A DNA stretch of 64,000 nt, taken from assembly GCA_004431415.1 (NCBI GenBank), contig QPMI01000039.1:248001-312000 (forward strand). The letters are read 5' to 3'. Below, piece after piece: positions 19,072 to 41,410 of this stretch (the stretch's first letter is position 1; each line of letters starts with the position of its first letter). The notes under the pieces are model-generated. The model saw only the letters and a program-made list of their open reading frames with translations. It was not told the origin of the DNA and made no database searches. Source of the DNA: Cyanophora paradoxa CCMP329 (Eukaryota > Plantae > Glaucophyta). A program made the translations under genes and the position numbers.

Positions 19072-19137
19072 AGATGTTTTCCCTTTAAGTAGTTTTGAAG
19101 GTTTTGAAGAAATTCACCACCCACTGATTGGTTAATA

Positions 19138-22155: not shown

Positions 22156-22263
22156 AAGTTCGTTTTTGTATTCCATGTTTTTTTGTCTTCATGGTGTGTG
22201 AAAAGCGTGTAGCAGAAAGAAAAAAGACTTAAAAATGACGCGTTACAGGAGAGGTAGGATTCA

Positions 22264-22584: not shown

Positions 22585-22657
22585 GATTATTTCCAAAAAA
22601 CAATAATTACGTGAATTACTGTATTACTTCTCTTTTTTAAACCTGCCTTTCAATAAC

Positions 22658-22941: not shown

Positions 22942-22962
22942 CAATAATCCAACTGTTCTCTT

Positions 22963-23499
22963 TTATTCATTTGCATATGACTTAGGGTCTGATGCTTCTA
23001 TTCCATCAAAAAGTAGTTTAGTTCTACAAACTGAACACTTAAATGATTCATGTGATTCAAGTAAAGAGAAGTAACAATTAGGACAATAACGAGTATTGCA
23101 AACGATACACGCTTTATTATTAATGTTAGTGTCAATCTTTTCAAGACAGATAGGACATGTTTCATTCGGACTTTCAAAGTTATCTCTTGTGAATGACTTA
23201 ATAATGATATCTACGAACCATTTGGTGTTCTCAATATCAAGATATGGGACCAACATGTAGCGTTGTTTATATGAGAATGCAAAACGAATAGGTTGAAGAG
23301 CATTGTATCCTGCCCTTGCTTTCCATGCATCGAATACACCTTTATTCTTTCGGTTCTGTTGAATCAAGTATATAATCTGTTTCTTGTTTGCTTTCGTTAG
23401 AAATTTCGTATAATTCTTATCATTCATCTTATCTGTTGCATTGACTACGGGATATGGCGAAATCGATTCTATAAAACTCAATATTTCGGTTAGATTCAT
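22963..23499 (-). CDS. RING-finger protein (C-terminal RING)
   Basis: CPICL..CIVC..YCPNC..CSVCR. Confidence 0.8.
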   Translation of the reverse strand: MNLTEILSFIESISPYPVVNATDKMNDKNYTKFLTKANKKQIIYLIQQNRKNKGVFDAWKARAGYNALQPIRFAFSYKQRYMLVPYLDIENTKWFVDIIIKSFTRDNFESPNETCPICLEKIDTNINNKACIVCNTRYCPNCYFSLLESHESFKCSVCRTKLLFDGIEASDPKSYANE

Positions 23500-23539
23500 T
23501 TTGGCTGTGCTACTCTTTGTTACAATTTCTTTTATTCCC

Positions 23540-23820
23540 TTAGGATTTTACGATATAAAACACTCTTTTCAGAACTCCACCAAGTCTCACAACATGGGAT
23601 TTAATCCAAAAATGCGCTTAATCATAATTCCGACCGCTGTTTTTGAAATTGGAAAGTCTACAAGGTCTTGTATTTCAGCATGGATGTAATCAGAAGGTGT
23701 ATAATCACTGTCATAACATACCCTGTAACTATCCATTAAATATGCTTCCACATCTGACATGGTATATTGATACTCAGGAGTTTCGTCCATAACAATTTCA
23801 ATGTATTCGTCTTCATCCAT
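23540..23820 (-). CDS. Stand-alone D5-C-terminal-like winged-helix protein (copy 1, 1-bp frameshift)
   Basis: Same as the intact 93-aa copies at 28302 and 41089. Confidence 0.6.
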
Positions 23821-23974
23821 GTTACAATTTTATAGTTACACGTTACAATTTTTGTTACATGTTTGATGAATGATGTCCAAAAATTGACGCTTTCCAAACA
23901 TCCATAAAGTATATAAGGATTTGGGAAGTAAGATAAGTGAAAGGAATTTAATCTCTCCCATTTATAGAGGAATA

Positions 23975-24436
23975 ATGGTGAATACTCGGAAATCAAACCA
24001 AGAGCTTATCGCTATTCAGAAAGGCGAACCTGTCCCACAGGTTGAAAAGAAAACGACATTAACAGAGGAAGAACGGGAAGAAAAGGCAAGAATTAGAAGA
24101 GCAAAAGATGCGGAGAGGAAGCGTATTAAGTATCAGGAGATGAAACAACAGAGACTTGCAAATGGTGAGGAAACGATTAATCCGCCGGAAGTTTTGGAAA
24201 AGATGGCTTTGTATAGACAGCGTCGATATGCGGAGGATGAAGAGTTTAGAAACAAAAGGAAAGAGTTGACACGTAACTATCGGGAACGGAAACGCAATGG
24301 AAATGTTTCTAATAAGCAACAGACAGAGAAGAAGAACGGGAGACCCCGTAAATACAATGCTTATAATCCAGATGTATCATTGGAAAACATCGTGGTTATT
24401 CATCGTTTTTACAGATTGATATGCAGAACGTCTTAA
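23975..24436 (+). CDS. RKSNQ-family basic protein with GRPRKY; C-terminus altered by the duplication junction
   Basis: Identical to 28738-29166 up to ENIV. Confidence 0.65.
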   Translation: MVNTRKSNQELIAIQKGEPVPQVEKKTTLTEEEREEKARIRRAKDAERKRIKYQEMKQQRLANGEETINPPEVLEKMALYRQRRYAEDEEFRNKRKELTRNYRERKRNGNVSNKQQTEKKNGRPRKYNAYNPDVSLENIVVIHRFYRLICRTS

Positions 24437-25020
24437 ATATTGTCATTTTTGAATTGCATGATGGAAATGGTTTGGGTTCTCGATATTTGATCATAGATTT
24501 GTATAGGGTATATACCGATAAATAAAGGTTACAAAAAGGTTGAAGATGGGTTACTTTGAGTGTTTTTGGATGATAAGACCATTTCCAGAGTTGAAAAAGG
24601 TGGATTATTGCTATTTTGTTACTGCAATTTGAGGTTACTTTACTTTTCAGATTCTTTCTGAGAGAACCCCTGGGGGGTCTTTTTTATAGGTGAAGGTATA
24701 AAACTTGCGTAACCTCGTGACTTTCGTATCCTGATAGAGTTTATGGTCTCTTTTTTGTATTTTTTAAGGTAACTTTTATTTTTTTCATTCGTAACATCTG
24801 TAACCTTCTTATAAATACAATTATATATCTTCATTTATTTTATTGTTAATCATACTCGTCTTCAAAATGTGGAATCCAGAGAATCGTATATGAGATTTTC
24901 AATATATTACATGGTATGATTTTCTCTATTGTAGTTTAATTAGAGGTCGAATAATCATTACAAAACCATGATTTGTCAAAAATGGGTTTTTTGAAAAATA
25001 ACACATTGATTATGATTTGT

Positions 25021-26097
25021 CTATTTGTGGCTTTTTTTCATTAAACCGAGAAATTCTGTGATAGTTTCGCCTTGATACTGTCTTTTAATTAACTCAATCT
25101 TGAAAATCTTCCTGATCAAATATGCGATATCCCGTTTTTCGACATGGTCGCTTAGGTGATCATTCTTAATGTAATTCAGCCAATCATTGAAAACTTCATG
25201 ACAATAAAGTTTATCATCTGGTTTTCCTGACAATGTGTATCGTTTGTTGATAAAATCACACACGATTGTTTCGGTGTCTCTATCTAAACGAAATTTAACT
25301 TTTGAATAACCACGCTCGTAAGTTCTTGTTTTTCCCTTCCTTACAGCGTTTCTCGTATAAGTAGCACCTAACGACATCATAATGCTTTTAATCTGGTTAG
25401 AGGACATAACCAAACCACGATCTCTGCAATACTCAATAACCTCTCTCGATGTTAAAACATCCCGAGAATCCCATGTGAAATCAAACAAGGTTTTGAACTT
25501 TGAGCTATCATCACCTGTTGGTTCATCATCTTCAACTGTGATATCTCCTTGTGATTTAACGAGACCTTTGAAAACATAGAGCATCTCATCGTAAAACATC
25601 TGAGAAGTTGGATTTAAGCCATTGAATACTTGACGAACTCGATAGAGAATATCGGACTCATCGAGATTATTCATTTTCTTTGTTTCCTTTAACATTGCGA
25701 AAACATCATCAAGTAGCATATATTGAGGAGTGTATTTGCTCGAATCTCCGGTTAAAACATAGTTGTTTTCGAGGTATTCATCTATAATCTCATTCCAGTT
25801 GATATCCTCCTCATCAGTTCCCTCATTCAGATGCTGTTTGATCAATTGACGAATTCTCCCTTTTGCTGATCGCAACGAATCCAATTTATAGTATTCGCCT
25901 TCAAAACTCTCGAACTCTTTCTTACATAACTTCTCGATTAAGCGCGGATTGCTACAATAGATCCACTCATAAATGGAAAAGTTGGGTAAAGCTCGTGAGT
26001 ATTGAGAAATGAGATTACTTACCGAAACAGTTGAGACACCAATTTTATACTTATTAATCGCTTGAAATTCCGGAACTGATCCAATGTAAATCGCCAT
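25021..26097 (-). CDS. T5orf172 domain plus three winged-helix-like repeats (copy 2)
   Basis: Intact 358-aa ORF. Confidence 0.78.
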   Translation of the reverse strand: MAIYIGSVPEFQAINKYKIGVSTVSVSNLISQYSRALPNFSIYEWIYCSNPRLIEKLCKKEFESFEGEYYKLDSLRSAKGRIRQLIKQHLNEGTDEEDINWNEIIDEYLENNYVLTGDSSKYTPQYMLLDDVFAMLKETKKMNNLDESDILYRVRQVFNGLNPTSQMFYDEMLYVFKGLVKSQGDITVEDDEPTGDDSSKFKTLFDFTWDSRDVLTSREVIEYCRDRGLVMSSNQIKSIMMSLGATYTRNAVRKGKTRTYERGYSKVKFRLDRDTETIVCDFINKRYTLSGKPDDKLYCHEVFNDWLNYIKNDHLSDHVEKRDIAYLIRKIFKIELIKRQYQGETITEFLGLMKKSHK

Positions 26098-26186
26098 TAT
26101 GTCGCTTACTTATATATGTGACTTGTCTTATCTTTAAGTGGTTTTCTTTGGGAAATGATCTCAAACACACTTCACAGTGTCTCTTT

Positions 26187-26492
26187 TTAGAGTATTAAAT
26201 TCCCTTCTTTATCGTATTGATCATTTAACCACGTCTTTATAATGAGTTCTATACATGATCGTGCGGCTTCCAATGACTCAAAAATAAAGAAATCGCCTTC
26301 ATGCTCATAAAGATCGCATAGATGCTTCTTTACTAAACGTGGGTTGCTACATTTGAACCACCCATAGATTGAAAACGCCTTCGATGATTGCTTATTAATA
26401 ACATCATTTACTGAATCGGTTGATGATAACCCGATCTTGTATGTCTTGTAATCAACCAACTCAGGTGTTGATCCGATATACAGAATATTCAT
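26187..26492 (-). CDS. Stand-alone T5orf172-like protein (copy 2)
   Basis: Identical to 21422-21727. Confidence 0.72.
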   Translation of the reverse strand: MNILYIGSTPELVDYKTYKIGLSSTDSVNDVINKQSSKAFSIYGWFKCSNPRLVKKHLCDLYEHEGDFFIFESLEAARSCIELIIKTWLNDQYDKEGNLIL

Positions 26493-26596
26493 ATTATGAT
26501 TCTTTTATAATCAATGTCGCTTTCTTCTTAAATCATCGTAGAAGTATCTTATAGATTTAAGGATGAAACGTATATATATATGAAAGTGAAACTACA

Positions 26597-26919
26597 ATGC
26601 CTCGTAAATCGAATCAGCAATTGATGGCGGAACAGAGAGGTGAAGTTTATATTATGCCTTGCAAGGTGACACCTGAAATACTCCTTTTGAGACGTGAAAA
26701 GCATAGAGAATATAATCGCAAATATAACGAAAAGGTCAAACAAAAACGAATCGAAGATGGCGAGCCAACTATCACGCCTCCGAATAGAATCGCAAATAGT
26801 AGCCGATACCAAATGCAACGATACTGGAAGACGAAGAGTTTCGCATTCGAGTTCGTGAGAGATCACGAGAATATCAGAAAAATAAGAGAAGCACTAAATG
26901 TGTTAATGAAGAAAACTAA
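26597..26919 (+). CDS. RKSNQ-family basic protein (copy 2, 1-bp frameshift at ~26827)
   Basis: GG versus GGG relative to the other copies. Confidence 0.65.
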
Positions 26920-27027
26920 AAGTTCGTTTTTGTATTCCATGTTTTTTTGTCTTCATGGTGTGTGAAAAGCGTGTAGCAGAAAGAAAAAAGACTTAAAAAT
27001 GACGCGTTACAGGAGAGGTAGGATTCA

Positions 27028-27348
27028 ATGACGGCGTGTGCAAATTTCTCTGCTCACCTTCACGAATTGGGTGTTGATTTTACAGACCTTTACTCAGAAA
27101 AACGAGATGAGATATTGAAGAAAACATTTGAAGCACGAGCAAGGTGTGAAGGATATAAACCAAGTCAGATACCGTCTAAATTAAAACGTATACTTGAAGA
27201 GAAAGCTATCTCCTCAATGACAAAAACATTTGAGAGTTTTGACCACGATGTTAGACATAGCGGTAACCGCTTACAGTTGAAACTAAGAAAGAAGATTGAC
27301 AAGCGAAACGAGGCGATAGTTCTAAGTTATCTTCTCGGTTTAATTTAG
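27028..27348 (+). CDS. Hypothetical protein (copy 2)
   Basis: Identical to 22264-22584. Confidence 0.65.
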   Translation: MTACANFSAHLHELGVDFTDLYSEKRDEILKKTFEARARCEGYKPSQIPSKLKRILEEKAISSMTKTFESFDHDVRHSGNRLQLKLRKKIDKRNEAIVLSYLLGLI

Positions 27349-27724
27349 GATTATTTCCAAAAAACAATAATTACGTGAATTACTGTATTACTTCTCTTTT
27401 TTAAACCTGCCTTTCAATAACAGGTTACTGATGGTTGAATGATGGGTTACTTTAAGGGTTTTTGGTTGATAAGACCATTTTCAGAGTTGAAACAATCAAA
27501 AACTCTGCTATTTTGTTACTGCGAGTTGCGGTTACCTAACTTTTCAAATTCTTTCTGAGAGAACTCCTGGGGTCTTTTTTATAGGTGAAGGTATAAAACA
27601 TGCGTAACCTCGTGACTTTCGTATCCTGATAGAGTTTATGGTCTCTTTTTTGTATTTTTTAAGGTAACTTTTCTTTTTTCATTCGTAACATCTGTAACCT
27701 TCTTCAATAATCCAACTGTTCTCT

Positions 27725-28261
27725 TTATTCATTTGCATATGACTTAGGGTCTGATGCTTCTATTCCATCAAAAAGTAGTTTAGTTCTACAAACTGAACAC
27801 TTAAATGATTCATGTGATTCAAGTAAAGAGAAGTAACAATTAGGACAATAACGAGTATTGCAAACGATACACGCTTTATTATTAATGTTAGTGTCAATCT
27901 TTTCAAGACAGATAGGACATGTTTCATTCGGACTTTCAAAGTTATCTCTTGTGAATGACTTAATAATGATATCTACGAACCATTTGGTGTTCTCAATATC
28001 AAGATATGGGACCAACATGTAGCGTTGTTTATATGAGAATGCAAAACGAATAGGTTGAAGAGCATTGTATCCTGCCCTTGCTTTCCATGCATCGAATACA
28101 CCTTTATTCTTTCGGTTCTGTTGAATCAAGTATATAATCTGTTTCTTGTTTGCTTTCGTTAGAAATTTCGTATAATTCTTATCATTCATCTTATCTGTTG
28201 CATTGACTACGGGATATGGCGAAATCGATTCTATAAAACTCAATATTTCGGTTAGATTCAT
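27725..28261 (-). CDS. RING-finger protein (copy 2)
   Basis: Identical to 22963-23499. Confidence 0.8.
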   Translation of the reverse strand: MNLTEILSFIESISPYPVVNATDKMNDKNYTKFLTKANKKQIIYLIQQNRKNKGVFDAWKARAGYNALQPIRFAFSYKQRYMLVPYLDIENTKWFVDIIIKSFTRDNFESPNETCPICLEKIDTNINNKACIVCNTRYCPNCYFSLLESHESFKCSVCRTKLLFDGIEASDPKSYANE

Positions 28262-28301
28262 TTTGGCTGTGCTACTCTTTGTTACAATTTCTTTTATTCC
28301 C

Positions 28302-28583
28302 TTAGGATTTTACGATATAAAACACTCTTTTCAGAACTCCACCAAGTCTCACAACATGGGATTTAATCCCAAAAATGCGCTTAATCATAATTCCGACCGC
28401 TGTTTTTGAAATTGGAAAGTCTACAAGGTCTTGTATTTCAGCATGGATGTAATCAGAAGGTGTATAATCACTGTCATAACATACCCTGTAACTATCCATT
28501 AAATATGCTTCCACATCTGACATGGTATATTGATACTCAGGAGTTTCGTCCATAACAATTTCAATGTATTCGTCTTCATCCAT
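28302..28583 (-). CDS. Stand-alone D5-C-terminal-like winged-helix protein
   Basis: YLMDSY...ISKTAVGIMIKRIFGIKSHVVRLGGVLKRVF aligns with the helicase tail FLRDNY...ITGRAVSNKVMEVFKIGSTVKKIGGKSKRVY. Confidence 0.68.
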   Translation of the reverse strand: MDEDEYIEIVMDETPEYQYTMSDVEAYLMDSYRVCYDSDYTPSDYIHAEIQDLVDFPISKTAVGIMIKRIFGIKSHVVRLGGVLKRVFYIVKS

Positions 28584-28737
28584 GTTACAATTTTATAGTT
28601 ACACGTTACAATTTTTGTTACATGTTTGATGAATGATGTCCAAAAATTGACGCTTTCCAAACATCCATAAAGTATATAAGGATTTGGGAAGTAAGATAAG
28701 TGAAAGGAATTTAATCTCTCCCATTTATAGAGGAATA

Positions 28738-29166
28738 ATGGTGAATACTCGGAAATCAAACCAAGAGCTTATCGCTATTCAGAAAGGCGAACCTGTCCCA
28801 CAGGTTGAAAAGAAAACGACATTAACAGAGGAAGAACGGGAAGAAAAGGCAAGAATTAGAAGAGCAAAAGATGCGGAGAGGAAGCGTATTAAGTATCAGG
28901 AGATGAAACAACAGAGACTTGCAAATGGTGAGGAAACGATTAATCCGCCGGAAGTTTTGGAAAAGATGGCTTTGTATAGACAGCGTCGATATGCGGAGGA
29001 TGAAGAGTTTAGAAACAAAAGGAAAGAGTTGACACGTAACTATCGGGAACGGAAACGCAATGGAAATGTTTCTAATAAGCAACAGACAGAGAAGAAGAAC
29101 GGGAGACCCCGTAAATACAATGCTTATAATCCAGATGTATCATTGGAAAACATCGTAGCGAATTGA
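28738..29166 (+). CDS. RKSNQ-family basic protein with AT-hook-like GRPRKY
   Basis: Start MVNTRKSNQ; RYAEDEEFR motif shared with 21832. Confidence 0.7.
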   Translation: MVNTRKSNQELIAIQKGEPVPQVEKKTTLTEEEREEKARIRRAKDAERKRIKYQEMKQQRLANGEETINPPEVLEKMALYRQRRYAEDEEFRNKRKELTRNYRERKRNGNVSNKQQTEKKNGRPRKYNAYNPDVSLENIVAN

Positions 29167-29184
29167 TCAATAAGAGGTGAAAAA

Positions 29185-32100
29185 ATGACGCTTTACTTTC
29201 TCTTTTTTTATAACCTAAGGCAAATCATTAAAGTGCCGTGGGCAACCGAAAAGCATTTAAGGAAGAAGCAAATAGATAAGGTAATGGGATTCAGAAATCT
29301 TCATATTAATTTCTCTGAGAAAGGTAAGAACCAATCGCTGAAAATGAACGCTAACACGAAAATCGCAACTCCCTGTGAGAGACTCGGTGACCTACGCAAA
29401 TTTACAGGTGAGAAACATAATTGGGGTTCTTTCCTCCATTGTCTCACTCCGAATACTGACAGCGAGACTGTCATGGAGTATTTCGACCATCAGATTACGG
29501 AAAGGATTAATGATGATTTGAAGAAAGGCAAAAAACCGACCTACGCCGAATGCATTCAGCCGAACGAAATCACCCGTGTCTATCTGGATTATGACGGTTA
29601 CGTGGATCTTAAACCGAATGTTGCCGATAACTACAAGGAAGCCGATGAATTCATCCGTGAAATGCGCAAGAGACTACACGAACTCACCGGTGCTACCATT
29701 GCTGTTTCTGTGCGTCATCGTTCTGTTTATTTCGTTAAGGAAGAAGTGACCCAATTTAAGGTATCGGGGCATTTCGTCTTTACCGATCTGTGCTGTCGTC
29801 ATGAAGACATCCCGAAATTCTTAAATGTAATCGGACTTACGCCAAATGTCGATTATGACCCGCTCGTTTATAAGACAAGGCAGGCGCTTGTTTGTCTGGT
29901 AGTTGCAAGGGTAAATGGTTGGATTCCCAAAACAAAACTAAACGCGATGTTGATAAGGATGTAGTATTTACCAAGTTTGTGGATTGCGAAAGCATGTATG
30001 ACAGCGACTTTTTCGCGCAATTCACCGATTGCCCCACTGTGCTTATCGATGAATCAAACATGTATATGTTTGATGCTAACCTAACCCAAGATGAGAAAAA
30101 CGAACGGTCGGCAAAGGCGAAAGTTGCAGAAGAGCAGATGAAGGAGGAAGGCAAGACTGAAACCAAGAAGGAGACCGCAACCACGACCAAGAAGGAGACG
30201 ACCAAGACAACCAAGAAGGAGACGGCGACGACAAGCAAAAAAACAACAAAGAAAACGGAGAGTGAAGAGCAGCCGGAGGAGTCCAATAACGTTTCATTTG
30301 AGAAACTGAGAGAAGTCGTGATGGGTCTCAGTGCTGAAAGATCGGATACATACGAAGGTTGGCTTAATGTTGGTTTCGCAATCGCAAATGTTGGAGAGGA
30401 AAACAAGATACCACCCACGAAACAGGAGGCGCTGTTTCACGAATACTCAGAGAAAAGCCCGAAGTATGATTACGACGAAACCGCGAGCAAATGGATGAGT
30501 ATCCGCAAAGGCAAAAAATCCGGTTCTGAAAACAAAAGTATAACTTTCGGGTCACTTGTGCATTATCTGAAAGAGGATAACCCGGACAAGTATTACGAAC
30601 TGTTTAAACGAAGCCGACAGTTTGCATTTATCGATGAGGAGGCGTGTATGGATGAGAATGACTATTCCGATGTTAGCGCCATGAATGATAAGATGGCTCA
30701 AATCAAATTAGAGATGGATAAGACGCTATTAAGTCAAGGTCTCCAACTTCCTGTTAGCAAGATCTGTAAAGCATTAATTGGCTACAAAGTGCGGTTTTCG
30801 CGCGGTCTGTGGTTGATCCTGAATGAGAAAACCGGATTTTGGAAGGTAGACAATGCATACGATGGTGGTATGATAAGACTTATCGGTGAGGTGGTCGGGA
30901 AAGCATACTTAGACCGTGGTAACTATTGGACATGCAAGGCAGCAAAGGCGGAGGATCAGAGCGATAAAAAAGAGTTTGCCGCAAGGGCAGCCGCCTGTGC
31001 GAAAATTGCAGCGAAACTTAACAGTGGAGGATACGCAAAGGGACTTCTTCCATATCTCTCTGATTACCTTTACGATGAGACCTTCGCTGATAGGTTGGAT
31101 TCAGTCCCAAATATTGTCGGCTTTAACGATGGGGTTTATGATTTGAACACATTTGAGTTCCGTAATGGTCGGTCTTCTGATATGATGACTAAGACGGTCG
31201 GTTATAATTATAACACTCCTGTGGATCCTAAGAAGGTCGAACGACTCAATGACTTCTATATAGATATCACAGGTGACAGGGAGGAGCTCGCAAGATACAT
31301 TAAGGCCGTTTATGCCAAGTCTCTTACAGGTCAAAATAACATGCAGTTTTTCTACATGTTTACGGGTATCGGCTCGAACGGAAAGAGCGTAAGCGAAAAT
31401 TTCATGCATAAGACATTTGGCGATTACTCGCGAAATATGAGCATTGGGATTTTCACAAAGGAGGATAAAGGTAATGGAATGATTCCGGAACTTGCGAATA
31501 AGCAAGGTGTTAGGCTCGTCCATACAAACGAACCAAACACGGGCAGCAAACTGTTGGCTGGACAAATCAAGAATTTCACAGGTGGTGATGAGATTACGAC
31601 ACGAACCCTTTTCAAAGAACCCATTTCATTTAATCCGATGTTTGTTATCATCATTCTTTGTAATAACAATCTTGAATTGGACCAGCCCGATAACGCGATA
31701 GCTCGCCGTTTCCGTTCTGTTCCGTTTCAGCAGATTTATGCCGTTGAACCCAAGCCTGGACAGAAGAAAGCGGACAAAGACCTTATTGGCTTGCTGAATC
31801 CCGAGAATGACGTAAACGGTGAATGGCGCAGGGCAAACATGGAGATTCTCATAGATATGCTTAAAAATCATGATGTCAAGCATATTCTCGACCATCCACC
31901 TAAATGCATCCTTGAACATTCCGCTAATTATCTTGCCGATAGCGACCGCATCGGCACATTCCTAAGGGATAACTACGCTTTGGCAAATGATAGCACGAAA
32001 TACATAATTTGCGATGATCTGTTTAAGGATTGCGCCAATACCATGCGTGATGTCGATAGAAGAACGCAAATAACGGGACGCGCTGTAAGCAATAAGGTGA

Positions 32101-32222
32101 TGGAGGTGTTTAAGATTGGCTCAACAGTTAAAAAGATAGGTGGGAAATCAAAGCGTGTCTATCTCAATCTCACAAAAGTTCACGCTAATGATTTCGAAGA
32201 CGACGACGAAGATGTAGAGTAA
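29185..32222 (+). CDS. AEP primase-polymerase / PriCT-2 / D5-like SF3 helicase (left copy, 1-bp frameshift at ~29898)
   Basis: YLDYDG, SGHF, DPLVY; YEGWLNVGFAI; GFNDGVYDL; Walker A GIGSNGKS; intact in the right arm. Confidence 0.92.
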
Positions 32223-32289
32223 AACCGTTTGGAAAATATACTATTCATATCTTTTTTATCATTATGAACCATAAGATTGGTTCTTAATT

Positions 32290-32584
32290 GAAGGTTACTA
32301 CGATCAAATGCGAGTTACATTTAGTGGTTGCTTTGCGTTCCCGTTTCTCTCTTACCTTTTTCAGTGTGGAAATCCCTAATCTCTGTATTATCAGCTGGCG
32401 TGAGTTGCGGTTACTTAACTTTTCAAATTCTTTCTGAGAGAACTCCTGGGGGGGTCTTTTTTTAGGTGAAGGTATAAAACATGCGTAACCTCGTGACTTT
32501 CGTATCCTGATAGAGTTTATGGTCTCTTTTTTGTATTTTTTAAGGTAACCTTTCTTTTTCATTCGTAACCTCTGTAACCTTCTT
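32290..32584. repeat. Iteron-like module C directly downstream of the primase-helicase (copy at ~37088-37382); candidate origin
   Basis: AAGGTTAC...GTAACCTT boundaries; same core as modules A and B. Confidence 0.7.
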
Positions 32585-32713
32585 ATATATACATAATTAT
32601 CATTTGTTTCTTATTTTTCTCATTGTCGCCGTTATTAAAATGTAGGTAAGACATCGTAAAATCTGAAAAAAATGACATGTTAAATACATATAAGGTTGTG
32701 GTGATATATTCAT

Positions 32714-32965
32714 TTGACAATTAAGATGACTTGCAAACTCCCCGAACGCATCGACATGGGTGAATATCTCATTAAAGACCTTCCGGAAGAAATTAAACCT
32801 CTTGCTCGCAAAATGGACTTACAAGGAATTCAAGAATACTATGAGAGAACTTACCCGGATTTATTCAAGAAAAAGCGACGTGTAGAATCATCAAAGGTCG
32901 AACCATCAGAAAGTATCACTATTCAGGTGCCAAAAGGTGTTAAGGTCAAAATTCAAAGAATCTAA
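32714..32965 (+). CDS. Hypothetical protein
   Basis: 83-aa ORF; mirror copy at 36706. Confidence 0.6.
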   Translation: MTIKMTCKLPERIDMGEYLIKDLPEEIKPLARKMDLQGIQEYYERTYPDLFKKKRRVESSKVEPSESITIQVPKGVKVKIQRI

Positions 32966-32998
32966 CACGCTTTACAAGAAAAAAACATATATAACACA

Positions 32999-33340
32999 TT
33001 GTTAATAGATACGAAAGAACATTTGATAATGAAGCGATTCTTTACTATCAGAGAGCATGAAGCTATTCATTTTTCTATGCGGTTTTTTGAGAATCCAGAA
33101 AACAGATGTATGGATAAATTCGAAGACTTCTGTAAAGAATTTACCCAAATCGCTTATGGTAACACCAAATTATGTAATCCATCAAGAAACCAATTGTTAA
33201 AAGACCATTTCCAAACAATGCTTTTATCATTTGATGCAGATAACTCAAAGAATCATAAAACAGTCACAGGTTCTATAAGGGAGCGTCTCCAAGACAAATT
33301 AGCAAAACGTAGAATATCACAATGTGTAACCTGTTCTTAA
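32999..33340 (+). CDS. Hypothetical protein (ENRxxDKF...RERLQDKL family)
   Basis: Paralogue of core ORF 34375-34713. Confidence 0.68.
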   Translation: MLIDTKEHLIMKRFFTIREHEAIHFSMRFFENPENRCMDKFEDFCKEFTQIAYGNTKLCNPSRNQLLKDHFQTMLLSFDADNSKNHKTVTGSIRERLQDKLAKRRISQCVTCS

Positions 33341-33389
33341 AAAGCATTTAAAGACGTCTTAACTCTTATAATAAAACGAATCATCAGAG

Positions 33390-34121
33390 ATGGATTGTGT
33401 CATTTGTTTGAACAAGCTGAACCCAAAGAAGGTTACCAAACTCGAATGCGGTCACAAATTCTGTAAGAAGTGTTTTGATGATTGGGATAAAGCGAATGTA
33501 TCACGCTACGATCTCCTACCAATCTGTAAAGGCAAACCGTTTTGTGATTCAGATGACGCTTTCCTAATCAATCTTTCTCTATCGAAATCATGGGTAAGTT
33601 GTCCTCTCTGTAAACAAGATCACACTTATATGAATTGGGAGACTTTCCATGGTAAGAAGAAGAAACCCGTTTTAAAGAAAGTGATATGTAAGATTTGGTT
33701 CGCTAAGGAGGACTGCGGAGATGTAGACGCTTGTGATCTTATCACAGATCAGAGACATTTAATAAAGTATATACCACTGAGCGATAGGAAATTAATGAAA
33801 GAGGGGAAAGATCCAAAATACGACCATTCGTATAATGTGATTACCTATTTTGAGAAATGCATAGCTGAACACGTAACAGACATACACATGAATAATTGTA
33901 TGTGTAATGATAAGAAATGTAGCAAAATATTCCCTGTGTCTGCGAAAGAGTGCAATTGTCTTAATCATACAACCCCTTGGGATTTCGAGAATTGGCTAAA
34001 AACATTTAATCCCGACTCGAAAGATTGGATGGATAGAATGACATTCTATAACAAAACTAAATATCACATCTCTACGGGTCAATTGAGAATGCGAACGCGT
34101 GAGAACACCGCAAATTCATAA
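33390..34121 (+). CDS. N-terminal C3HC4 RING protein (putative E3 ligase), allele A
   Basis: CVIC..LECGHKFCKKC...CPLCK. Confidence 0.82.
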   Translation: MDCVICLNKLNPKKVTKLECGHKFCKKCFDDWDKANVSRYDLLPICKGKPFCDSDDAFLINLSLSKSWVSCPLCKQDHTYMNWETFHGKKKKPVLKKVICKIWFAKEDCGDVDACDLITDQRHLIKYIPLSDRKLMKEGKDPKYDHSYNVITYFEKCIAEHVTDIHMNNCMCNDKKCSKIFPVSAKECNCLNHTTPWDFENWLKTFNPDSKDWMDRMTFYNKTKYHISTGQLRMRTRENTANS

Positions 34122-34374
34122 CATGTCCCTCTTTCAAACGCACTTTAATATGGGTCTTTTTTTCAAACCTTCACATGAACGTGTAGTTTTGCTTCACACA
34201 ATCGTGTAGGTTTTCGTATTGGTCTATGTCGTGGAATGATTCAAGAAATAACGTTTTTCACAATTAACATCTTTCACAACCCGATGATACAATCAAGAAA
34301 TACTCGATTGAATCCATAAAAAACACCAAACCATAACTACACATAAACCATTCAGTGTTACACTTTCCCGGGAA

Positions 34375-34713
34375 TTACATAACATTCTGTTCATCATTTG
34401 TTAAACTCTTTGCCTTTGCGCGATCCGCTAATTTCTTCTGTAATCTTCCACGGACAGGTTCCGCAAAACCGTATTGTCCATCTTCCCATTGCATTATAAT
34501 ATTGATAAACCTCTGCCGGATCGATTCTTTAACAGAAGGGTTAAATTTCCTACCATTGTTTCCTCCATAATGTTGAATGATTCCCTCATAAAACTCATCG
34601 AATTTATCTAATCTTCTATTCTCTTCTTTTGAGAGGAAAGTTTCCATAAATCTATGCGATTGTATAACATTGCGTCCGGTTTGTTTGGAACACTTCCCGT
34701 TCATCCTTTTCAT
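34375..34713 (-). CDS. Unique-core hypothetical protein, paralogue of 32999
   Basis: ENRRLDKFDEF..NPS..VRGRLQKKLADR; AAAATTGA ~30 nt upstream. Confidence 0.68.
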   Translation of the reverse strand: MKRMNGKCSKQTGRNVIQSHRFMETFLSKEENRRLDKFDEFYEGIIQHYGGNNGRKFNPSVKESIRQRFINIIMQWEDGQYGFAEPVRGRLQKKLADRAKAKSLTNDEQNVM

Positions 34714-34742
34714 AAACGTAACAAAACCTTTTTAAATCTTTT

Positions 34743-34919
34743 TCAATTTTCGCCCACAAAACTGCATTTCAAATGAATATATGTGCGTCTTTCTCTTTCA
34801 TATTATGTGCATTTCTTACATAGATATTCGTAACACAAAGCACAATCAGGCGAAGCATTGGAGATCGAATTTTCAGTAAAAAAGTGATCGTGTTTGCAAT
34901 AGAAACATTGGGTAGACAT
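34743..34919 (-). pseudogene. 58-codon zinc-finger ORF with one internal TAA (not in the ORF track)
   Basis: MSTQCFYCKHDHFFTENSISNASPDCALCYEYLCKKCT*YERERRTYIHLKC, colinear with the C-terminus of 19138/45270. Confidence 0.7.
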
Positions 34920-34958
34920 TCATAGGATTTAAAAGAAATCCGACAAGTAGTTATAACG

Positions 34959-35282
34959 ATGGGTAAGAGAAAAGCGAATGAATGGCGAACTGTATTTGTC
35001 GGTGCTAAAAGCGAACGCCCAATTGTTTCTATGGTCAATAAAACCGTCGGTGAATTAAAACAAACACCTTTTCAAAGAGCAAAAACCAATGAAATGTATG
35101 AAAGAATGGGAACCCGAAATTGTTGTATGATTTGTGGAGATACGGAAAAACTCAAACCGATGTCTCAGGGACTCCTTTGTGAATTCTGTTATAATTATCA
35201 AAAAGGTATGTCTTCGGAATCAGATGTAAGCATAAATAATCCTGCAAGTTTGATCCAATTTTTGCGAATGCAAGGGTTGTAA
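34959..35282 (+). CDS. Unique-core small zinc-finger protein
   Basis: CMICGD...LCEFC. Confidence 0.65.
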   Translation: MGKRKANEWRTVFVGAKSERPIVSMVNKTVGELKQTPFQRAKTNEMYERMGTRNCCMICGDTEKLKPMSQGLLCEFCYNYQKGMSSESDVSINNPASLIQFLRMQGL

Positions 35283-35549
35283 TCTGAATCAATCGGGAAA
35301 AGGGAAAGTGTAACACTGAATGGTTTATGTGTAGTTATGGTTTGGTGTTTTTTATGGATTCAATCGAGTATTTCTTGATTGTATCATCGGGTTGTGAAAG
35401 ATGTTAATTGTGAAAAACGTTATTTCTTGAATCATTCCACGACATAGACCAATACGAAAACCTACACGATTGTGTGAAGCAAAACTACACGTTCATGTGA
35501 AGGGTTGAAAAAAAGACCCATATTAAAGTGCGTTTGAAAGAGGGACATG

Positions 35550-36281
35550 TTATGAATTTGCGGTGTTCTCACGCGTTCGCATTCTCAATTGACCCGTAGA
35601 GATGAGATATTTAGTTTTGTTATAGAATGTCATTCTTTCAATCCAATCTTTCGAGTCGGGATTAAATGTTTTTAGCCAATTCTCGAAATCCCAAGGGGTT
35701 GTATGATTAAGACAATTGCACTCTTTCGCAGACACAGGGAATATTTTGCTACATTTCTTATCATTACACATACAGTTATTCATGTGTATGTCTGTTTCGT
35801 GTTCAGCTATGCATTTCTCAAAATAGGTAATCACATTATACGAATGGTCGTATTTTGGATCTTTCCCCTCTTTCATTAATTTCCTATCGCTCAGTGGTAT
35901 ATACTTTATTAAATGTCTCTGATCTGTGATAAGATCACAAGCGTCTACATTGCCGCAGTCCTCCTTAGCGAACCAAATCTTACATATCACTTTCTTTAAA
36001 ACGGGTTTCTTCTTCTTACCATGGAAAGTCTCCCAATTCATATAAGTGTGATCTTGTTTACAGAGAGGACAACTTACCCATGATTTCGATAGAGAAAGAT
36101 TGATTAGGAAAGCGTCATCTGAATCACAAAACGGTTTGCCTTTACAGATTGGTAGGAGATCGTAGCGTGATACATTCGCTTTATCCCAATCATCAAAACA
36201 CTTCTTACAGAATTTGTGACCGCATTCGAGTTTGGTAACCTTCTTTGGGTTCAGCTTGTTCAAACAAATGACACAATCCAT
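35550..36281 (-). CDS. N-terminal C3HC4 RING protein, allele B
   Basis: Mirror of 33390 with five amino-acid differences. Confidence 0.82.
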   Translation of the reverse strand: MDCVICLNKLNPKKVTKLECGHKFCKKCFDDWDKANVSRYDLLPICKGKPFCDSDDAFLINLSLSKSWVSCPLCKQDHTYMNWETFHGKKKKPVLKKVICKIWFAKEDCGNVDACDLITDQRHLIKYIPLSDRKLMKEGKDPKYDHSYNVITYFEKCIAEHETDIHMNNCMCNDKKCSKIFPVSAKECNCLNHTTPWDFENWLKTFNPDSKDWIERMTFYNKTKYLISTGQLRMRTRENTANS

Positions 36282-36330
36282 CTCTGATGATTCGTTTTAT
36301 TATAAGAGTTAAGACGTCTTTAAATGCTTT

Positions 36331-36672
36331 TTAAGAACAGGTTACACATTGTGATATTCTACGTTTTGCTAATTTGTCTTGGAGACGCTCCCTTATAGAA
36401 CCTGTGACTGTTTTATGATTCTTTGAGTTATCTGCATCAAATGATAAAAGCATTGTTTGGAAATGGTCTTTTAACAATTGGTTTCTTGATGGATTACATA
36501 ATTTGGTGTTACCATAAGCGATTTGGGTAAATTCTTTACAGAAGTCTTCGAATTTATCCATACATCTGTTTTCTGGATTCTCAAAAAACCGCATAGAAAA
36601 ATGAATAGCTTCATGCTCTCTGATAGTAAAGAATCGCTTCATTATCAAATGTTCTTTCGTATCTATTAACAA
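36331..36672 (-). CDS. Hypothetical protein (mirror of 32999)
   Basis: Identical translation. Confidence 0.68.
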   Translation of the reverse strand: MLIDTKEHLIMKRFFTIREHEAIHFSMRFFENPENRCMDKFEDFCKEFTQIAYGNTKLCNPSRNQLLKDHFQTMLLSFDADNSKNHKTVTGSIRERLQDKLAKRRISQCVTCS

Positions 36673-36705
36673 TGTGTTATATATGTTTTTTTCTTGTAAA
36701 GCGTG

Positions 36706-36957
36706 TTAGATTCTTTGAATTTTGACCTTAACACCTTTTGGCACCTGAATAGTGATACTTTCTGATGGTTCGACCTTTGATGATTCTACACGTCGCTTTT
36801 TCTTGAATAAATCCGGGTAAGTTCTCTCATAGTATTCTTGAATTCCTTGTAAGTCCATTTTGCGAGCAAGAGGTTTAATTTCTTCCGGAAGGTCTTTAAT
36901 GAGATATTCACCCATGTCGATGCGTTCGGGGAGTTTGCAAGTCATCTTAATTGTCAA
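36706..36957 (-). CDS. Hypothetical protein (mirror of 32714)
   Basis: Identical translation. Confidence 0.6.
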   Translation of the reverse strand: MTIKMTCKLPERIDMGEYLIKDLPEEIKPLARKMDLQGIQEYYERTYPDLFKKKRRVESSKVEPSESITIQVPKGVKVKIQRI

Positions 36958-37449
36958 ATGAATATATCACCACAACCTTATATGTATTTAACATGTCATT
37001 TTTTTCAGATTTTACGATGTCTTACCTACATTTTAATAACGGCGACAATGAGAAAAATAAGAAACAAATGATAATTATGTATATATAAGAAGGTTACAGA
37101 GGTTACGAATGAAAAAAGAAAGGTTACCTTAAAAAATACAAAAAAGAGACCATAAACTCTATCAGGATACGAAAGTCACGAGGTTACGCATGTTTTATAC
37201 CTTCACCTAAAAAAAGACCCCCCCAGGAGTTCTCTCAGAAAGAATTTGAAAAGTTAAGTAACCGCAACTCACGCCAGCTGATAATACAGAGATTAGGGAT
37301 TTCCACACTGAAAAAGGTAAGAGAGAAACGGGAACGCAAAGCAACCACTAAATGTAACTCGCATTTGATCGTAGTAACCTTCAATTAAGAACCAATCTTA
37401 TGGTTCATAATGATAAAAAAGATATGAATAGTATATTTTCCAAACGGTT

Positions 37450-40440
37450 TTACTCTACATCTTCGTCGTCGTCTTCGAAATCATTAGCGTGAACTTTTGT
37501 GAGATTGAGATAGACACGCTTTGATTTCCCACCTATCTTTTTAACTGTTGAGCCAATCTTAAACACCTCCATCACCTTATTGCTTACAGCGCGTCCCGTT
37601 ATTTGCGTTCTTCTATCGACATCACGCATGGTATTGGCGCAATCCTTAAACAGATCATCGCAAATTATGTATTTCGTGCTATCATTTGCCAAAGCGTAGT
37701 TATCCCTTAGGAATGTGCCGATGCGGTCGCTATCGGCAAGATAATTAGCGGAATGTTCAAGGATGCATTTAGGTGGATGGTCGAGAATATGCTTGACATC
37801 ATGATTTTTAAGCATATCTATGAGAATCTCCATGTTTGCCCTGCGCCATTCACCGTTTACGTCATTCTCGGGATTCAGCAAGCCAATAAGGTCTTTGTCC
37901 GCTTTCTTCTGTCCAGGCTTGGGTTCAACGGCATAAATCTGCTGAAACGGAACAGAACGGAAACGGCGAGCTATCGCGTTATCGGGCTGGTCCAATTCAA
38001 GATTGTTATTACAAAGAATGATGATAACAAACATCGGATTAAATGAAATGGGTTCTTTGAAAAGGGTTCGTGTCGTAATCTCATCACCACCTGTGAAATT
38101 CTTGATTTGTCCAGCCAACAGTTTGCTGCCCGTGTTTGGTTCGTTTGTATGGACGAGCCTAACACCTTGCTTATTCGCAAGTTCCGGAATCATTCCATTA
38201 CCTTTATCCTCCTTTGTGAAAATCCCAATGCTCATATTTCGCGAGTAATCGCCAAATGTCTTATGCATGAAATTTTCGCTTACGCTCTTTCCGTTCGAGC
38301 CGATACCCGTAAACATGTAGAAAAACTGCATGTTATTTTGACCTGTAAGAGACTTGGCATAAACGGCCTTAATGTATCTTGCGAGCTCCTCCCTGTCACC
38401 TGTGATATCTATATAGAAGTCATTGAGTCGTTCGACCTTCTTAGGATCCACAGGAGTGTTATAATTATAACCGACCGTCTTAGTCATCATATCAGAAGAC
38501 CGACCATTACGGAACTCAAATGTGTTCAAATCATAAACCCCATCGTTAAAGCCGACAATATTTGGGACTGAATCCAACCTATCAGCGAAGGTCTCATCGT
38601 AAAGGTAATCAGAGAGATATGGAAGAAGTCCCTTTGCGTATCCTCCACTGTTAAGTTTCGCTGCAATTTTCGCACAGGCGGCTGCCCTTGCGGCAAACTC
38701 TTTTTTATCGCTCTGATCCTCCGCCTTTGCTGCCTTGCATGTCCAATAGTTACCACGGTCTAAGTATGCTTTCCCGACCACCTCACCGATAAGTCTTATC
38801 ATACCACCATCGTATGCATTGTCTACCTTCCAAAATCCGGTTTTCTCATTCAGGATCAACCACAGACCGCGCGAAAACCGCACTTTGTAGCCAATTAATG
38901 CTTTACAGATCTTGCTAACAGGAAGTTGGAGACCTTGACTTAATAGCGTCTTATCCATCTCTAATTTGATTTGAGCCATCTTATCATTCATGGCGCTAAC
39001 ATCGGAATAGTCATTCTCATCCATACACGCCTCCTCATCGATAAATGCAAACTGTCGGCTTCGTTTAAACAGTTCGTAATACTTGTCCGGGTTATCCTCT
39101 TTCAGATAATGCACAAGTGACCCGAAAGTTATACTTTTGTTTTCAGAACCGGATTTTTTGCCTTTGCGGATACTCATCCATTTGCTCGCGGTTTCGTCGT
39201 AATCATACTTCGGGCTTTTCTCTGAGTATTCGTGAAACAGCGCCTCCTGTTTCGTGGGTGGTATCTTGTTTTCCTCTCCAACATTTGCGATTGCGAAACC
39301 AACATTAAGCCAACCTTCGTATGTATCCGATCTTTCAGCACTGAGACCCATCACGACTTCTCTCAGTTTCTCAAATGAAACGTTATTGGACTCCTCCGGC
39401 TGCTCTTCACTCTCCGTTTTCTTTGTTGTTTTTTTGCTTGTCGTCGCCGTCTCCTTCTTGGTTGTCTTGGTCGTCTCCTTCTTGGTCGTGGTTGCGGTCT
39501 CCTTCTTGGTTTCAGTCTTGCCTTCCTCCTTCATCTGCTCTTCTGCAACTTTCGCCTTTGCCGACCGTTCGTTTTTCTCATCTTGGGTTAGGTTAGCATC
39601 AAACATATACATGTTTGATTCATCGATAAGCACAGTGGGGCAATCGGTGAATTGCGCGAAAAAGTCGCTGTCATACATGCTTTCGCAATCCACAAACTTG
39701 GTAAATACTACATCCTTATCAACATCGCGTTTAGTTTTGTTTTGGGAATCCAACCATTTACCCTTGCAACTACCCAGACAAACAAGCGCCTGCCTTGTCT
39801 TATAAACGAGCGGGTCATAATCGACATTTGGCGTAAGTCCGATTACATTTAAGAATTTCGGGATGTCTTCATGACGACAGCACAGATCGGTAAAGACGAA
39901 ATGCCCCGATACCTTAAATTGGGTCACTTCTTCCTTAACGAAATAAACAGAACGATGACGCACAGAAACAGCAATGGTAGCACCGGTGAGTTCGTGTAGT
40001 CTCTTGCGCATTTCACGGATGAATTCATCGGCTTCCTTGTAGTTATCGGCAACATTCGGTTTAAGATCCACGTAACCGTCATAATCCAGATAGACACGGG
40101 TGATTTCGTTCGGCTGAATGCATTCGGCGTAGGTCGGTTTTTTGCCTTTCTTCAAATCATCATTAATCCTTTCCGTAATCTGATGGTCGAAATACTCCAT
40201 GACAGTCTCGCTGTCAGTATTCGGAGTGAGACAATGGAGGAAAGAACCCCAATTATGTTTCTCACCTGTAAATTTGCGTAGGTCACCGAGTCTCTCACAG
40301 GGAGTTGCGATTTTCGTGTTAGCGTTCATTTTCAGCGATTGGTTCTTACCTTTCTCAGAGAAATTAATATGAAGATTTCTGAATCCCATTACCTTATCTA
40401 TTTGCTTCTTCCTTAAATGCTTTTCGGTTGCCCACGGCAC
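37450..40440 (-). CDS. AEP primase-polymerase / PriCT-2 / D5-like SF3 helicase with C-terminal winged helix (intact)
   Basis: 996-aa ORF; AEP DxD, SxH and D motifs; KKETATTT linker; Walker A GIGSNGKS, HTNEP, ILCNN, AIARRF; true start may be a downstream ATG. Confidence 0.94.
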   Translation of the reverse strand: MPWATEKHLRKKQIDKVMGFRNLHINFSEKGKNQSLKMNANTKIATPCERLGDLRKFTGEKHNWGSFLHCLTPNTDSETVMEYFDHQITERINDDLKKGKKPTYAECIQPNEITRVYLDYDGYVDLKPNVADNYKEADEFIREMRKRLHELTGATIAVSVRHRSVYFVKEEVTQFKVSGHFVFTDLCCRHEDIPKFLNVIGLTPNVDYDPLVYKTRQALVCLGSCKGKWLDSQNKTKRDVDKDVVFTKFVDCESMYDSDFFAQFTDCPTVLIDESNMYMFDANLTQDEKNERSAKAKVAEEQMKEEGKTETKKETATTTKKETTKTTKKETATTSKKTTKKTESEEQPEESNNVSFEKLREVVMGLSAERSDTYEGWLNVGFAIANVGEENKIPPTKQEALFHEYSEKSPKYDYDETASKWMSIRKGKKSGSENKSITFGSLVHYLKEDNPDKYYELFKRSRQFAFIDEEACMDENDYSDVSAMNDKMAQIKLEMDKTLLSQGLQLPVSKICKALIGYKVRFSRGLWLILNEKTGFWKVDNAYDGGMIRLIGEVVGKAYLDRGNYWTCKAAKAEDQSDKKEFAARAAACAKIAAKLNSGGYAKGLLPYLSDYLYDETFADRLDSVPNIVGFNDGVYDLNTFEFRNGRSSDMMTKTVGYNYNTPVDPKKVERLNDFYIDITGDREELARYIKAVYAKSLTGQNNMQFFYMFTGIGSNGKSVSENFMHKTFGDYSRNMSIGIFTKEDKGNGMIPELANKQGVRLVHTNEPNTGSKLLAGQIKNFTGGDEITTRTLFKEPISFNPMFVIIILCNNNLELDQPDNAIARRFRSVPFQQIYAVEPKPGQKKADKDLIGLLNPENDVNGEWRRANMEILIDMLKNHDVKHILDHPPKCILEHSANYLADSDRIGTFLRDNYALANDSTKYIICDDLFKDCANTMRDVDRRTQITGRAVSNKVMEVFKIGSTVKKIGGKSKRVYLNLTKVHANDFEDDDEDVE

Positions 40441-40505
40441 TTTAATGATTTGCCTTAGGTTATAAAAAAGAGAAAGTAAAGCGTCATTTTTTCACCTCTT
40501 ATTGA

Positions 40506-40934
40506 TCAATTCGCTACGATGTTTTCCAATGATACATCTGGATTATAAGCATTGTATTTACGGGGTCTCCCGTTCTTCTTCTCTGTCTGTTGCTTATTAG
40601 AAACATTTCCATTGCGTTTCCGTTCCCGATAGTTACGTGTCAACTCTTTCCTTTTGTTTCTAAACTCTTCATCCTCCGCATATCGACGCTGTCTATACAA
40701 AGCCATCTTTTCCAAAACTTCCGGCGGATTAATCGTTTCCTCACCATTTGCAAGTCTCTGTTGTTTCATCTCCTGATACTTAATACGCTTCCTCTCCGCA
40801 TCTTTTGCTCTTCTAATTCTTGCCTTTTCTTCCCGTTCTTCCTCTGTTAATGTCGTTTTCTTTTCAACCTGTGGGACAGGTTCGCCTTTCTGAATAGCGA
40901 TAAGCTCTTGGTTTGATTTCCGAGTATTCACCAT
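40506..40934 (-). CDS. RKSNQ-family basic protein (mirror of 28738)
   Basis: Identical translation. Confidence 0.7.
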   Translation of the reverse strand: MVNTRKSNQELIAIQKGEPVPQVEKKTTLTEEEREEKARIRRAKDAERKRIKYQEMKQQRLANGEETINPPEVLEKMALYRQRRYAEDEEFRNKRKELTRNYRERKRNGNVSNKQQTEKKNGRPRKYNAYNPDVSLENIVAN

Positions 40935-41088
40935 TATTCCTCTATAAATGGGAGAGATTAAATTCCTTTCACTTATCTTACTTCCCAAATCCTTATATAC
41001 TTTATGGATGTTTGGAAAGCGTCAATTTTTGGACATCATTCATCAAACATGTAACAAAAATTGTAACGTGTAACTATAAAATTGTAAC

Positions 41089-41370
41089 ATGGATGAAGAC
41101 GAATACATTGAAATTGTTATGGACGAAACTCCTGAGTATCAATATACCATGTCAGATGTGGAAGCATATTTAATGGATAGTTACAGGGTATGTTATGACA
41201 GTGATTATACACCTTCTGATTACATCCATGCTGAAATACAAGACCTTGTAGACTTTCCAATTTCAAAAACAGCGGTCGGAATTATGATTAAGCGCATTTT
41301 TGGGATTAAATCCCATGTTGTGAGACTTGGTGGAGTTCTGAAAAGAGTGTTTTATATCGTAAAATCCTAA
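41089..41370 (+). CDS. Stand-alone winged-helix protein (mirror of 28302)
   Basis: Identical; preceded by four TGTAAC repeats. Confidence 0.68.
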   Translation: MDEDEYIEIVMDETPEYQYTMSDVEAYLMDSYRVCYDSDYTPSDYIHAEIQDLVDFPISKTAVGIMIKRIFGIKSHVVRLGGVLKRVFYIVKS

Positions 41371-41410
41371 GGGAATAAAAGAAATTGTAACAAAGAGTAG
41401 CACAGCCAAA

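Follow-up and report, generated by a model that had tools for sequence, protein, structure and literature searches.

The closest described counterparts of the locus reported here are SaPI origins, which span about 300 bp, carry 6-12 penta- or hexameric iterons in opposite directions, lie right after rep and have an AT-rich centre (PMC9371898; bioRxiv 10.64898/2026.10.17.759575). Melting can also start between iterons outside that centre (bioRxiv 10.64898/2026.10.17.759575). The SaPI5 iteron GGTTGCA is one letter from GGTTAC, and the site of an RFX monomer is GTTRCY (PMC10530576). Mobile AEP-SF3 genes without an integrase are linked to T5orf172 genes and to repeats, which have been proposed as origins (PMC11296320; bioRxiv 10.64898/2026.10.13.758929); for many PLVs, virophages and giant-virus cassettes using AEP-SF3 primase-helicases origins are undefined, terminal or flanking repeats being all that the accessible parts of these papers propose. 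In virophages and PLVs of Halocafeteria seosinensis a palindrome closes the terminal repeat and goes together with non-pPolB replicases; these elements also nest in other viral elements (bioRxiv 10.64898/2026.07.28.741278). Transpovirons are capsid-less, linear, mimivirus-associated elements with 6-8 genes and an SF1 helicase (PMC3671162). Cryptophyte PLVs (PMC12220804) and two further sources (PMC10120064; bioRxiv 10.1101/2022.07.28.501842) completed the comparison. Within this literature, whose subscription papers and supplements were incompletely covered, so that the result is not proof of absence, we found no paper defining iterons for virophages, PLVs or giant-virus D5 genes.

We analyzed a stretch of 64,000 nucleotides (the window), in which a module of about 290 bp recurs within a low-GC palindromic element. 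Compared with the origins of SaPI1, SaPIbov1, SaPI5 and P4 alpha, the module has a similar number of iterons (7-8 words in 284-294 bp), at least two opposed iterons per side (3-4 facing 4) and the same 9-bp spacing of neighbouring words; one type, M3, lies directly downstream of a primase-helicase gene, and the product of that gene is an SF3 helicase with a predicted C-terminal winged helix. It differs in its centre, which at 63-64% AT matches the arm average and is not AT-rich, and in its setting, which is probably eukaryotic, judging from the Polinton and RING-finger genes, and which combines three module types per arm with no integrase and a helicase of about 13% identity in the structural alignment. 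Because the AT-rich centre is absent, we liken the presumed working of the module to that of a SaPI origin without classing it as one.

Convergent GTTAC and GTAAC words in a repeated module

The module occurs in eight copies of three types (M1, M2 and M3; Table 1). The right arm of the element holds one of each and the left arm five, because the latter contains a 4.76-kb tandem duplication; the earlier note's count of three modules per arm is thus correct for the non-redundant right arm and wrong for the left. A core common to all types exists as that note had described, at 92-97% identity, and measures about 185-200 bp instead of about 170 bp; M1 and M2 are 90% identical over the whole of their roughly 290 bp. 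The M1 and M2 types lie at distances of 4.6 and 7.5 kb from M3.

Within every module each GTTAC precedes each GTAAC without exception, so the assignment of GTTAC to one side and GTAAC to the other, made earlier from inspection, describes a complete segregation. Similarly, M3 does lie immediately after the helicase stop, as had been stated. In its left-arm copy GTTAC stands at 32294, 32314 and 32410, followed by GTAAC at 32485, 32545, 32565 and 32574. Word spacings across the module are, in order, 20-22, 68-69, 16, 73-75, 60, 20-22 and 9 bp; the third word is lost from M3, the inner spacer between the facing words is 68-70 bp, and a 7-9-bp inverted repeat marks the module ends.

Table 1. Positions of the modules, their carrier and associated features (window coordinates unless a contig is named)
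Feature	Position	Strand	Remarks
M3, 3 GTTAC then 4 GTAAC	32290..32584	+	72 nt past primase-helicase stop (32222)
M3, right-arm copy	37087..37380	-	after intact primase-helicase gene
M1, 4+4 pentamers	19763..20046	+	7-bp direct repeat at flanks
M2, 4+4 pentamers	22657..22941	+	convergent genes either side; 6-8-bp direct repeat at flanks
M1, copy in left-arm tandem duplication	24525..24810	+	
M2, copy in left-arm tandem duplication	27421..27704	+	
M2, right-arm copy	41968..42250	-	
M1, right-arm copy	44863..45148	-	
Polinton/Maverick-type element	1142..57781	.	543-bp TIRs, 6-bp target duplication, protein-primed PolB, A32 ATPase
Whole low-GC palindromic element	16702..48006	.	about 31 kb; about 26.5 kb without duplication; no capsid, integrase or PolB gene found
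Unique 932-bp centre, two divergent small ORFs	34370..35301	.	each arm's centre-facing end has an inward-pointing GTTAC
Terminal palindrome, perfect 28-bp stem, 29-nt GC-rich loop	16702..16786	.	starts at first insert base
Sub-terminal tandem arrays, 62 bp x14.5 (one GTTAC per unit) and 71/139 bp	17207..18579	.	mirrored at 46332-47704
979-aa protein, putative AEP primase + PriCT-2 + D5_N + SF3 helicase + predicted RFX-type winged helix	37450..40389	-	intact
Left-arm primase-helicase copy, two ORFs	29185..32222	+	frame break near 29.9 kb in this assembly
Stand-alone 93-aa gene, predicted RFX/P4-type winged helix	41089..41370	+	left-arm copy 28302-28583, minus strand
Four same-direction GTTAC words, operator-like	41051..41088	-	abut start codon of the 93-aa gene
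358-aa T5orf172/MUG113 (GIY-YIG-like) protein	43576..44652	+	Pfam hit on left-arm copy 20688-21332
Inverted word arrays after D5-type genes, giant-virus-like contigs	L289 7183-7500; L291 7144-7540; L300 7150-7420, 8270-8420; L302 7558-7800		

The earlier note had put forward pentamer enrichment and orientation statistics as a check, and both came out far above chance. Each type contains 7-8 pentamers where dinucleotide shuffles average 0.64-0.72; not one of 20,000 shuffles reached the observed count, and an equally good convergent set for any 5-mer arose in none of 3,000. Pentamer density is 26 per kb in the modules against 1.2 per kb elsewhere in the right arm and centre, a background that leaves out the tandem array and one promoter cluster. 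The left halves of M1, M2 and M3 have diverged, that of M3 being barely alignable with the other two; there, 17 of 20 columns within pentamers are invariant compared with 36 of 104 others (P = 4e-5). The words are conserved where the rest diverges and are therefore under constraint themselves. A variant element keeps the first word after the helicase, as read from one loose contig end in one of four short-read runs. Outside the modules, GTTAC also clusters at two places on which the earlier note is silent, in the terminal 62-bp array and before the small winged-helix gene.

AT contents of 80% are reached only in stretches between and outside the outer words. GC skew at the modules showed no switch beyond that of gene direction and was uninformative. 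A fold-back hairpin as a reading of the module was rejected (z = 0.68). All copies are intergenic. Their orientation relative to neighbouring genes is not alike among M1, M2 and M3, and for this reason we rejected the idea that the whole module acts as a plain promoter.

Direct repeats flank M1 and M2 at matching boundaries, and M3 has none. Among random intergenic pairs a repeat of at least 7 bp was found in 0.45% of trials and one of at least 8 bp in 0.13%, figures to be read with the post hoc choice of the module boundaries in mind. These repeats suggest that the extra copies M1 and M2 were inserted, though their ends misfit a standard MITE, in which inverted repeats are flush with a target duplication of fixed length: here the direct repeats are not flush with the inverted ends, their lengths are unequal and the module ends are asymmetric.

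A palindromic element inside a Polinton

The carrier has a GC content of 35%, and its arms, about 12.7 kb each and 99.9% identical, make up 96% of its length. It has about 15 genes, and its ORFs longer than 167 aa are limited to the helicase, the T5orf172 protein and two RING proteins; the helicase, its only one, is of the SF3/D5 type. Pfam searches of its ORFs, supplemented by PHROGs for integrases, identified no capsid, packaging ATPase, integrase or PolB.

Both flanks of the insert are halves of one Polinton with its target duplication intact, itself embedded in DNA of 60-74% GC. The ORF after the Polinton PolB appears integrase-like by its position and our reading of its sequence; it had no Pfam hit. 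In four of four runs an uninterrupted Polinton gene continues differently after 16701, and the insert therefore starts at 16702. That empty-site continuation is absent from the window, which indicates that Polinton DNA was lost and that no target duplication was formed. The insertion truncated a 224-aa ORF and a patatin-like phospholipase gene, which are convergent in the Polinton, and replaced the DNA between them (16035-16701, 48007-49414), as would fit capture during repair.

Several features of the Polinton stand apart from the insert. Its TIRs (1264-1290, 57633-57659) contain two GTTAC words 22 bp apart, like the first two words of M1 and M2, which may be chance. Between 49349 and 56864 it encodes a fibre-like protein of 1058 aa that contains phage-tail repeats, together with four related proteins, of which two have C1q-like ends; many diverged copies of this fibre-like family occur in the host's contigs. 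At 12957-14255, 13/14-bp tandem repeats of 70% GC interrupt the Polinton between two capsid-like ORFs.

The terminal hairpin is present at the left end of the element and not at the right. The same organism also has a variant in which loop and inner stem are unchanged and the outer stem differs yet still pairs completely, which marks the hairpin as a conserved structure. Poxvirus ends have the order hairpin, tandem repeats, long inverted repeat. The minus strand of the loop consists of three GCGAAGC units, a sequence known for its highly stable mini-hairpin. Contig depth summed over the loop greatly exceeds that of adjacent DNA, and the loop has no exact match in viral contigs.

Eight arm-to-arm substitutions lie within about 650 bp of the centre (33700-34369 versus 35302-35970), with one further change at the tip, and the outer 12 kb of the arms differ almost only by single-base indels; the pattern looks as if the arms were homogenised from outside in. 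The left-arm duplication (19631-29156 in this assembly) has at most 1 nt of microhomology, and its ends do not coincide with modules. All four short-read runs recover the centre as one exact contig, with exact arm contigs at 1.6-2.8x its depth (a rough guide, not a copy number). Each run also contains diverged relatives, 88-96% identical, that span the helicase and a portion of the centre; their depth is several times higher. At least half of the window's sampled words were found in 20 of 24 listed runs, representing one organism and 18 studies.

The carrier, a gene-bearing palindrome in a Polinton with neither capsid nor integrase, fits none of the families tested. PLVs and virophages have a capsid and a packaging ATPase, both missing here, and the terminal inverted repeats that the element shares with them are about 12.7 kb long as opposed to the few hundred bases described. 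The Halocafeteria elements, as far as their accessible description goes, have capsid genes, integrases and target duplications, unlike the present element, whose palindrome is at one end only. It shares with transpovirons the linear form, the lack of a capsid, the small number of genes and the habit of travelling with larger viral genomes; unlike them, it uses an AEP-SF3 primase-helicase in place of an SF1 helicase. It resembles the mobile AEP-SF3 replicases of PLVs, virophages and giant viruses as a second replicase inserted in a Polinton-type genome, whereas those are single genes, compared with about 15 genes in a 26-kb palindrome here, and their repeats, in the accessible parts of the sources, are not resolved into iterons. 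From phage satellites (P4, SaPI/PICI), which are elements of bacteria and carry an integrase at an att site, it is set apart by its location in a Polinton, the lack of an integrase ORF and the lack of a target duplication.

A predicted winged helix and phage arrays with the same word

Pfam identifies PriCT-2, D5_N and SF3 domains in the 979-aa protein, and the right-arm helicase has Walker A, Walker B and motif C. The N-terminal domain had no Pfam hit and an AlphaFold pLDDT under 50; it contains DxD, SxH and hD motifs, and a profile of its relatives scores 19.5 against at most 6.5 in 300 shuffles. On the basis of these motifs and this profile, we take it to be an AEP primase. The AlphaFold model is confident from about residue 340 and matches ASFV C962R PrimPol, poxvirus D5 and SaPI5 PriRep. 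Residues 471-957 align with SaPI5 PriRep (7ola; Z 28.0, rmsd 5.7, 395 aligned residues), and residues 890-967 align with the RFX1 DNA-binding domain (1dp7; Z 10.8, rmsd 2.0, 75 of 76 residues), which predicts a C-terminal winged helix of the RFX/P4 type. The best of 31,769 library hits are 30-37% identical, with no relative closer than about 34-37%. Single-protein searches gave two distant proteins and no close relative, no related locus was found in viral contigs, and plasmid matches were all distant P4-type primases below 60% identity.

The element encodes further candidate winged helices. The model of the stand-alone 93-aa protein matches 8zjr (Z 10.2), 1dp7 (Z 9.4) and the P4 origin-binding domain 1ka8 (Z 6.7); in a comparison with 48,161 chains, RFX5, RFX1 and the P4 origin-binding domain took the first three ranks. 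In the T5orf172 protein, two or three segments resemble winged helices by alignment alone; a single-protein search found no relatives of it.

We scanned IMG/VR for two GGTTAC followed by GTAACC and obtained at least 120 stretches, of which 80 with flanks were examined and 40 short ones dropped. These comprised 44 dense (at least 8 words) and 36 sparse stretches, dereplicated to 70 clusters (35 + 35), and the 89 ORFs of at least 250 aa that end between 700 nt inside and 1,800 nt before the match were run on Pfam and labelled by hand. A primase-helicase gene (D5, VapE, DUF927, Toprim or Prim-Pol/AAA) ends at the array in 14 of 35 dense clusters and in none of 35 sparse ones (P = 2e-5); for any initiator or primase the counts are 16 and 1. 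One dense cluster lies 1.2-1.7 kb away from its gene, and 21 of the 35 had no primase-helicase Pfam hit among the ORFs examined. The contrast between dense and sparse stretches marks the GGTTAC/GTAACC word and its layout as a common phage signature. The module shares with these arrays the word, the convergent layout and the place after the stop; the phage arrays looked at in detail are denser and have AT-rich centres (spacers of 76-92% AT in 9 of 13 examined), and no DNA homology to the module was found among 279 loci. The arrays (L080-L159) trail helicases of unrelated Pfam families, namely D5, VapE, DUF927, Toprim and AAA_25. Unannotated ORFs of 517-970 aa before dense arrays (L087, L108 and L128) may be unrecognised primase-helicases.

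The module as a candidate origin, and competing explanations

It is well supported that the module is a real origin-like one of a known mechanistic kind, in which the copy number and the carrier are what is unusual. We assign a probability of about 0.68 to the proposal that it is an origin of the SaPI/P4 kind served by the element's own primase-helicase, with M3 as the native site, M1 and M2 as added sites, and a small winged-helix protein that represses itself. The earlier description as a phage-satellite-like origin survives in its iteron-origin part, through the size, the number, orientation and place of the words, the predicted winged helix and the phage layout; its family label is unsupported: the insertion site is a Polinton, and no integrase was found among the ORFs of the element.

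Under this proposal, the winged-helix domains of a helicase hexamer would bind the two opposed GTTAC sets, a helicase ring would be loaded on each side and the DNA opened, and the helicase's own AEP domain would prime synthesis during an extrachromosomal linear phase of the element. Binding, opening and priming of this kind have been shown for SaPI Rep proteins. Melting might occur in the 80% AT stretches between or beside the outer words, the centre being of average composition; to invoke melting outside the centre here would be to rescue the proposal, not to test it. M1 and M2, as later inserted duplicates, could provide extra origins or loading sites. GTTAC probably has two further uses, as the operator of the 93-aa protein and, in the terminal arrays, as a binding site; the 93-aa protein would repress its own promoter and may compete at the origins. 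Against an origin stand the three module types per arm, whereas phage and SaPI replicons have one origin, and the other winged-helix domains encoded by the element, which could be the true binders.

The main rival is an operator role, because of the stand-alone winged-helix gene and the four GTTAC words that precede its start codon. On this account the arrays would serve the element's stand-alone and nuclease-fused winged-helix proteins, or a host RFX factor, as operators, silencers or partition sites. The modelled RFX/P4-type fold of the 93-aa ORF, the intergenic position of every module and the ordinary AT content of the module centre all speak for it. We consider it unlikely, as the promoter cluster runs in one direction and the modules are convergent, M2 has a gene ending on either side, a distance of 68-70 bp separates the facing words where an X-box has 0-3 bp (PMC10530576), and the convergent layout trails primase-helicase genes in phages. 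The module could also be a small non-autonomous, MITE-like unit that hops within these elements, its pentamers being transposase or integrase sites. The direct repeats flanking M1 and M2 and the inverted repeat at the module ends point that way, and a dispersed host MITE was the outcome that the earlier note had set against its own proposal. Yet all eight core matches in the window are inside the element, with none in the remaining 33 kb; the direct repeats, unequal in length and missing at M3, do not abut the inverted ends; no fold-back was found; and M3 has a lower summed contig depth than the helicase gene in four of four runs, a weak indication because contigs break in repeats. A MITE-like unit therefore strikes us as improbable, with the reservation that module mobility and origin function are not mutually exclusive.

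A further possibility, partly compatible with an origin, is that a larger linear virus collapsed into the carrier, keeping its two TIRs and losing almost all of its core; the modules would then be inherited repeats of an accessory helicase and would no longer fire. Entomopoxvirus terminal repeats combine a hairpin, tandem arrays, T5orf172 genes and a repeat-flanked accessory D5-like helicase (PMC11296320), and the insertion removed Polinton DNA without a target duplication, like a repair accident. A dead remnant is nonetheless doubtful, given that the right-arm helicase is intact with all its motifs, that the diverged relatives recur in all four runs and that the variant keeps a terminal hairpin with a different, again complementary outer stem. 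That the palindrome and the repeated modules are artefacts of long-read assembly is highly improbable, and we rejected it. The arm-to-arm differences are indeed mostly single-base indels and the left-arm duplication is known from the assembly alone, but M1, M2 and M3 differ by at least 10% and so cannot be assembly copies, the eight arm substitutions are all confined to the region near the centre, the short-read runs give the centre as one exact contig with deeper arms, and the flanks are halves of one Polinton with its target duplication intact.

We return to the module as a SaPI/P4-kind origin for what it would imply. With a defined word, a defined domain and a substrate of 290 bp, the origin question becomes testable, and, if the proposal is true, the SaPI/P4 self-loading mechanism extends to eukaryotic mobile DNA and the RFX recognition word is tied to a viral origin. 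Inverted words 50-75 bp apart after the stop would then be a signature that tells mobile helicases from core D5 genes. A wider and quite speculative idea, to which we give well below even odds, is that the element represents a family of linear palindromic replicons of eukaryotes that end in hairpins, lack capsid and integrase, and fire from several SaPI-type iteron origins by means of a self-loading primase-helicase. Spreading the origin module as an insertable unit and living as Polinton satellites, they would be a eukaryotic counterpart of P4 and SaPI, and the same origin logic, with one word per helicase, would mark the mobile AEP-SF3 cassettes of giant viruses.

The survey of D5 genes bears on the last point. 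A GTTAC array after the stop was found at none of 181 scored D5 loci (209 came from viral and metagenome scans, 28 of them too short). At eukaryote-virus-type D5 loci, an inverted repeat of at least 10 bp with a 50-73-bp spacer, a range that includes the 68-70 bp of the module's inner spacer, occurs in 6 of 24 long gaps that follow the D5 stop and in 10 of 206 other gaps (P = 0.003). Four of these six are on giant-virus-like contigs, and one (L204), a long repeat array, may be a different matter; M3 and L040 have words too short for the test to score. In L040, 5+5 convergent GGTGG words follow the helicase stop. This contig (1-9950) is a perfect palindrome of 9,950 bp with a D5 helicase, a tyrosine-recombinase-like gene, a methyltransferase and an AT-rich centre, and is a candidate small hairpin-ended replicon or an assembly mirror. 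On giant-virus-like contigs, inverted words of 16-25 bp lie 50-96 bp apart after D5-type genes, with a different word at each locus (Table 1); the second array of L300 is made of GGTTAT units.
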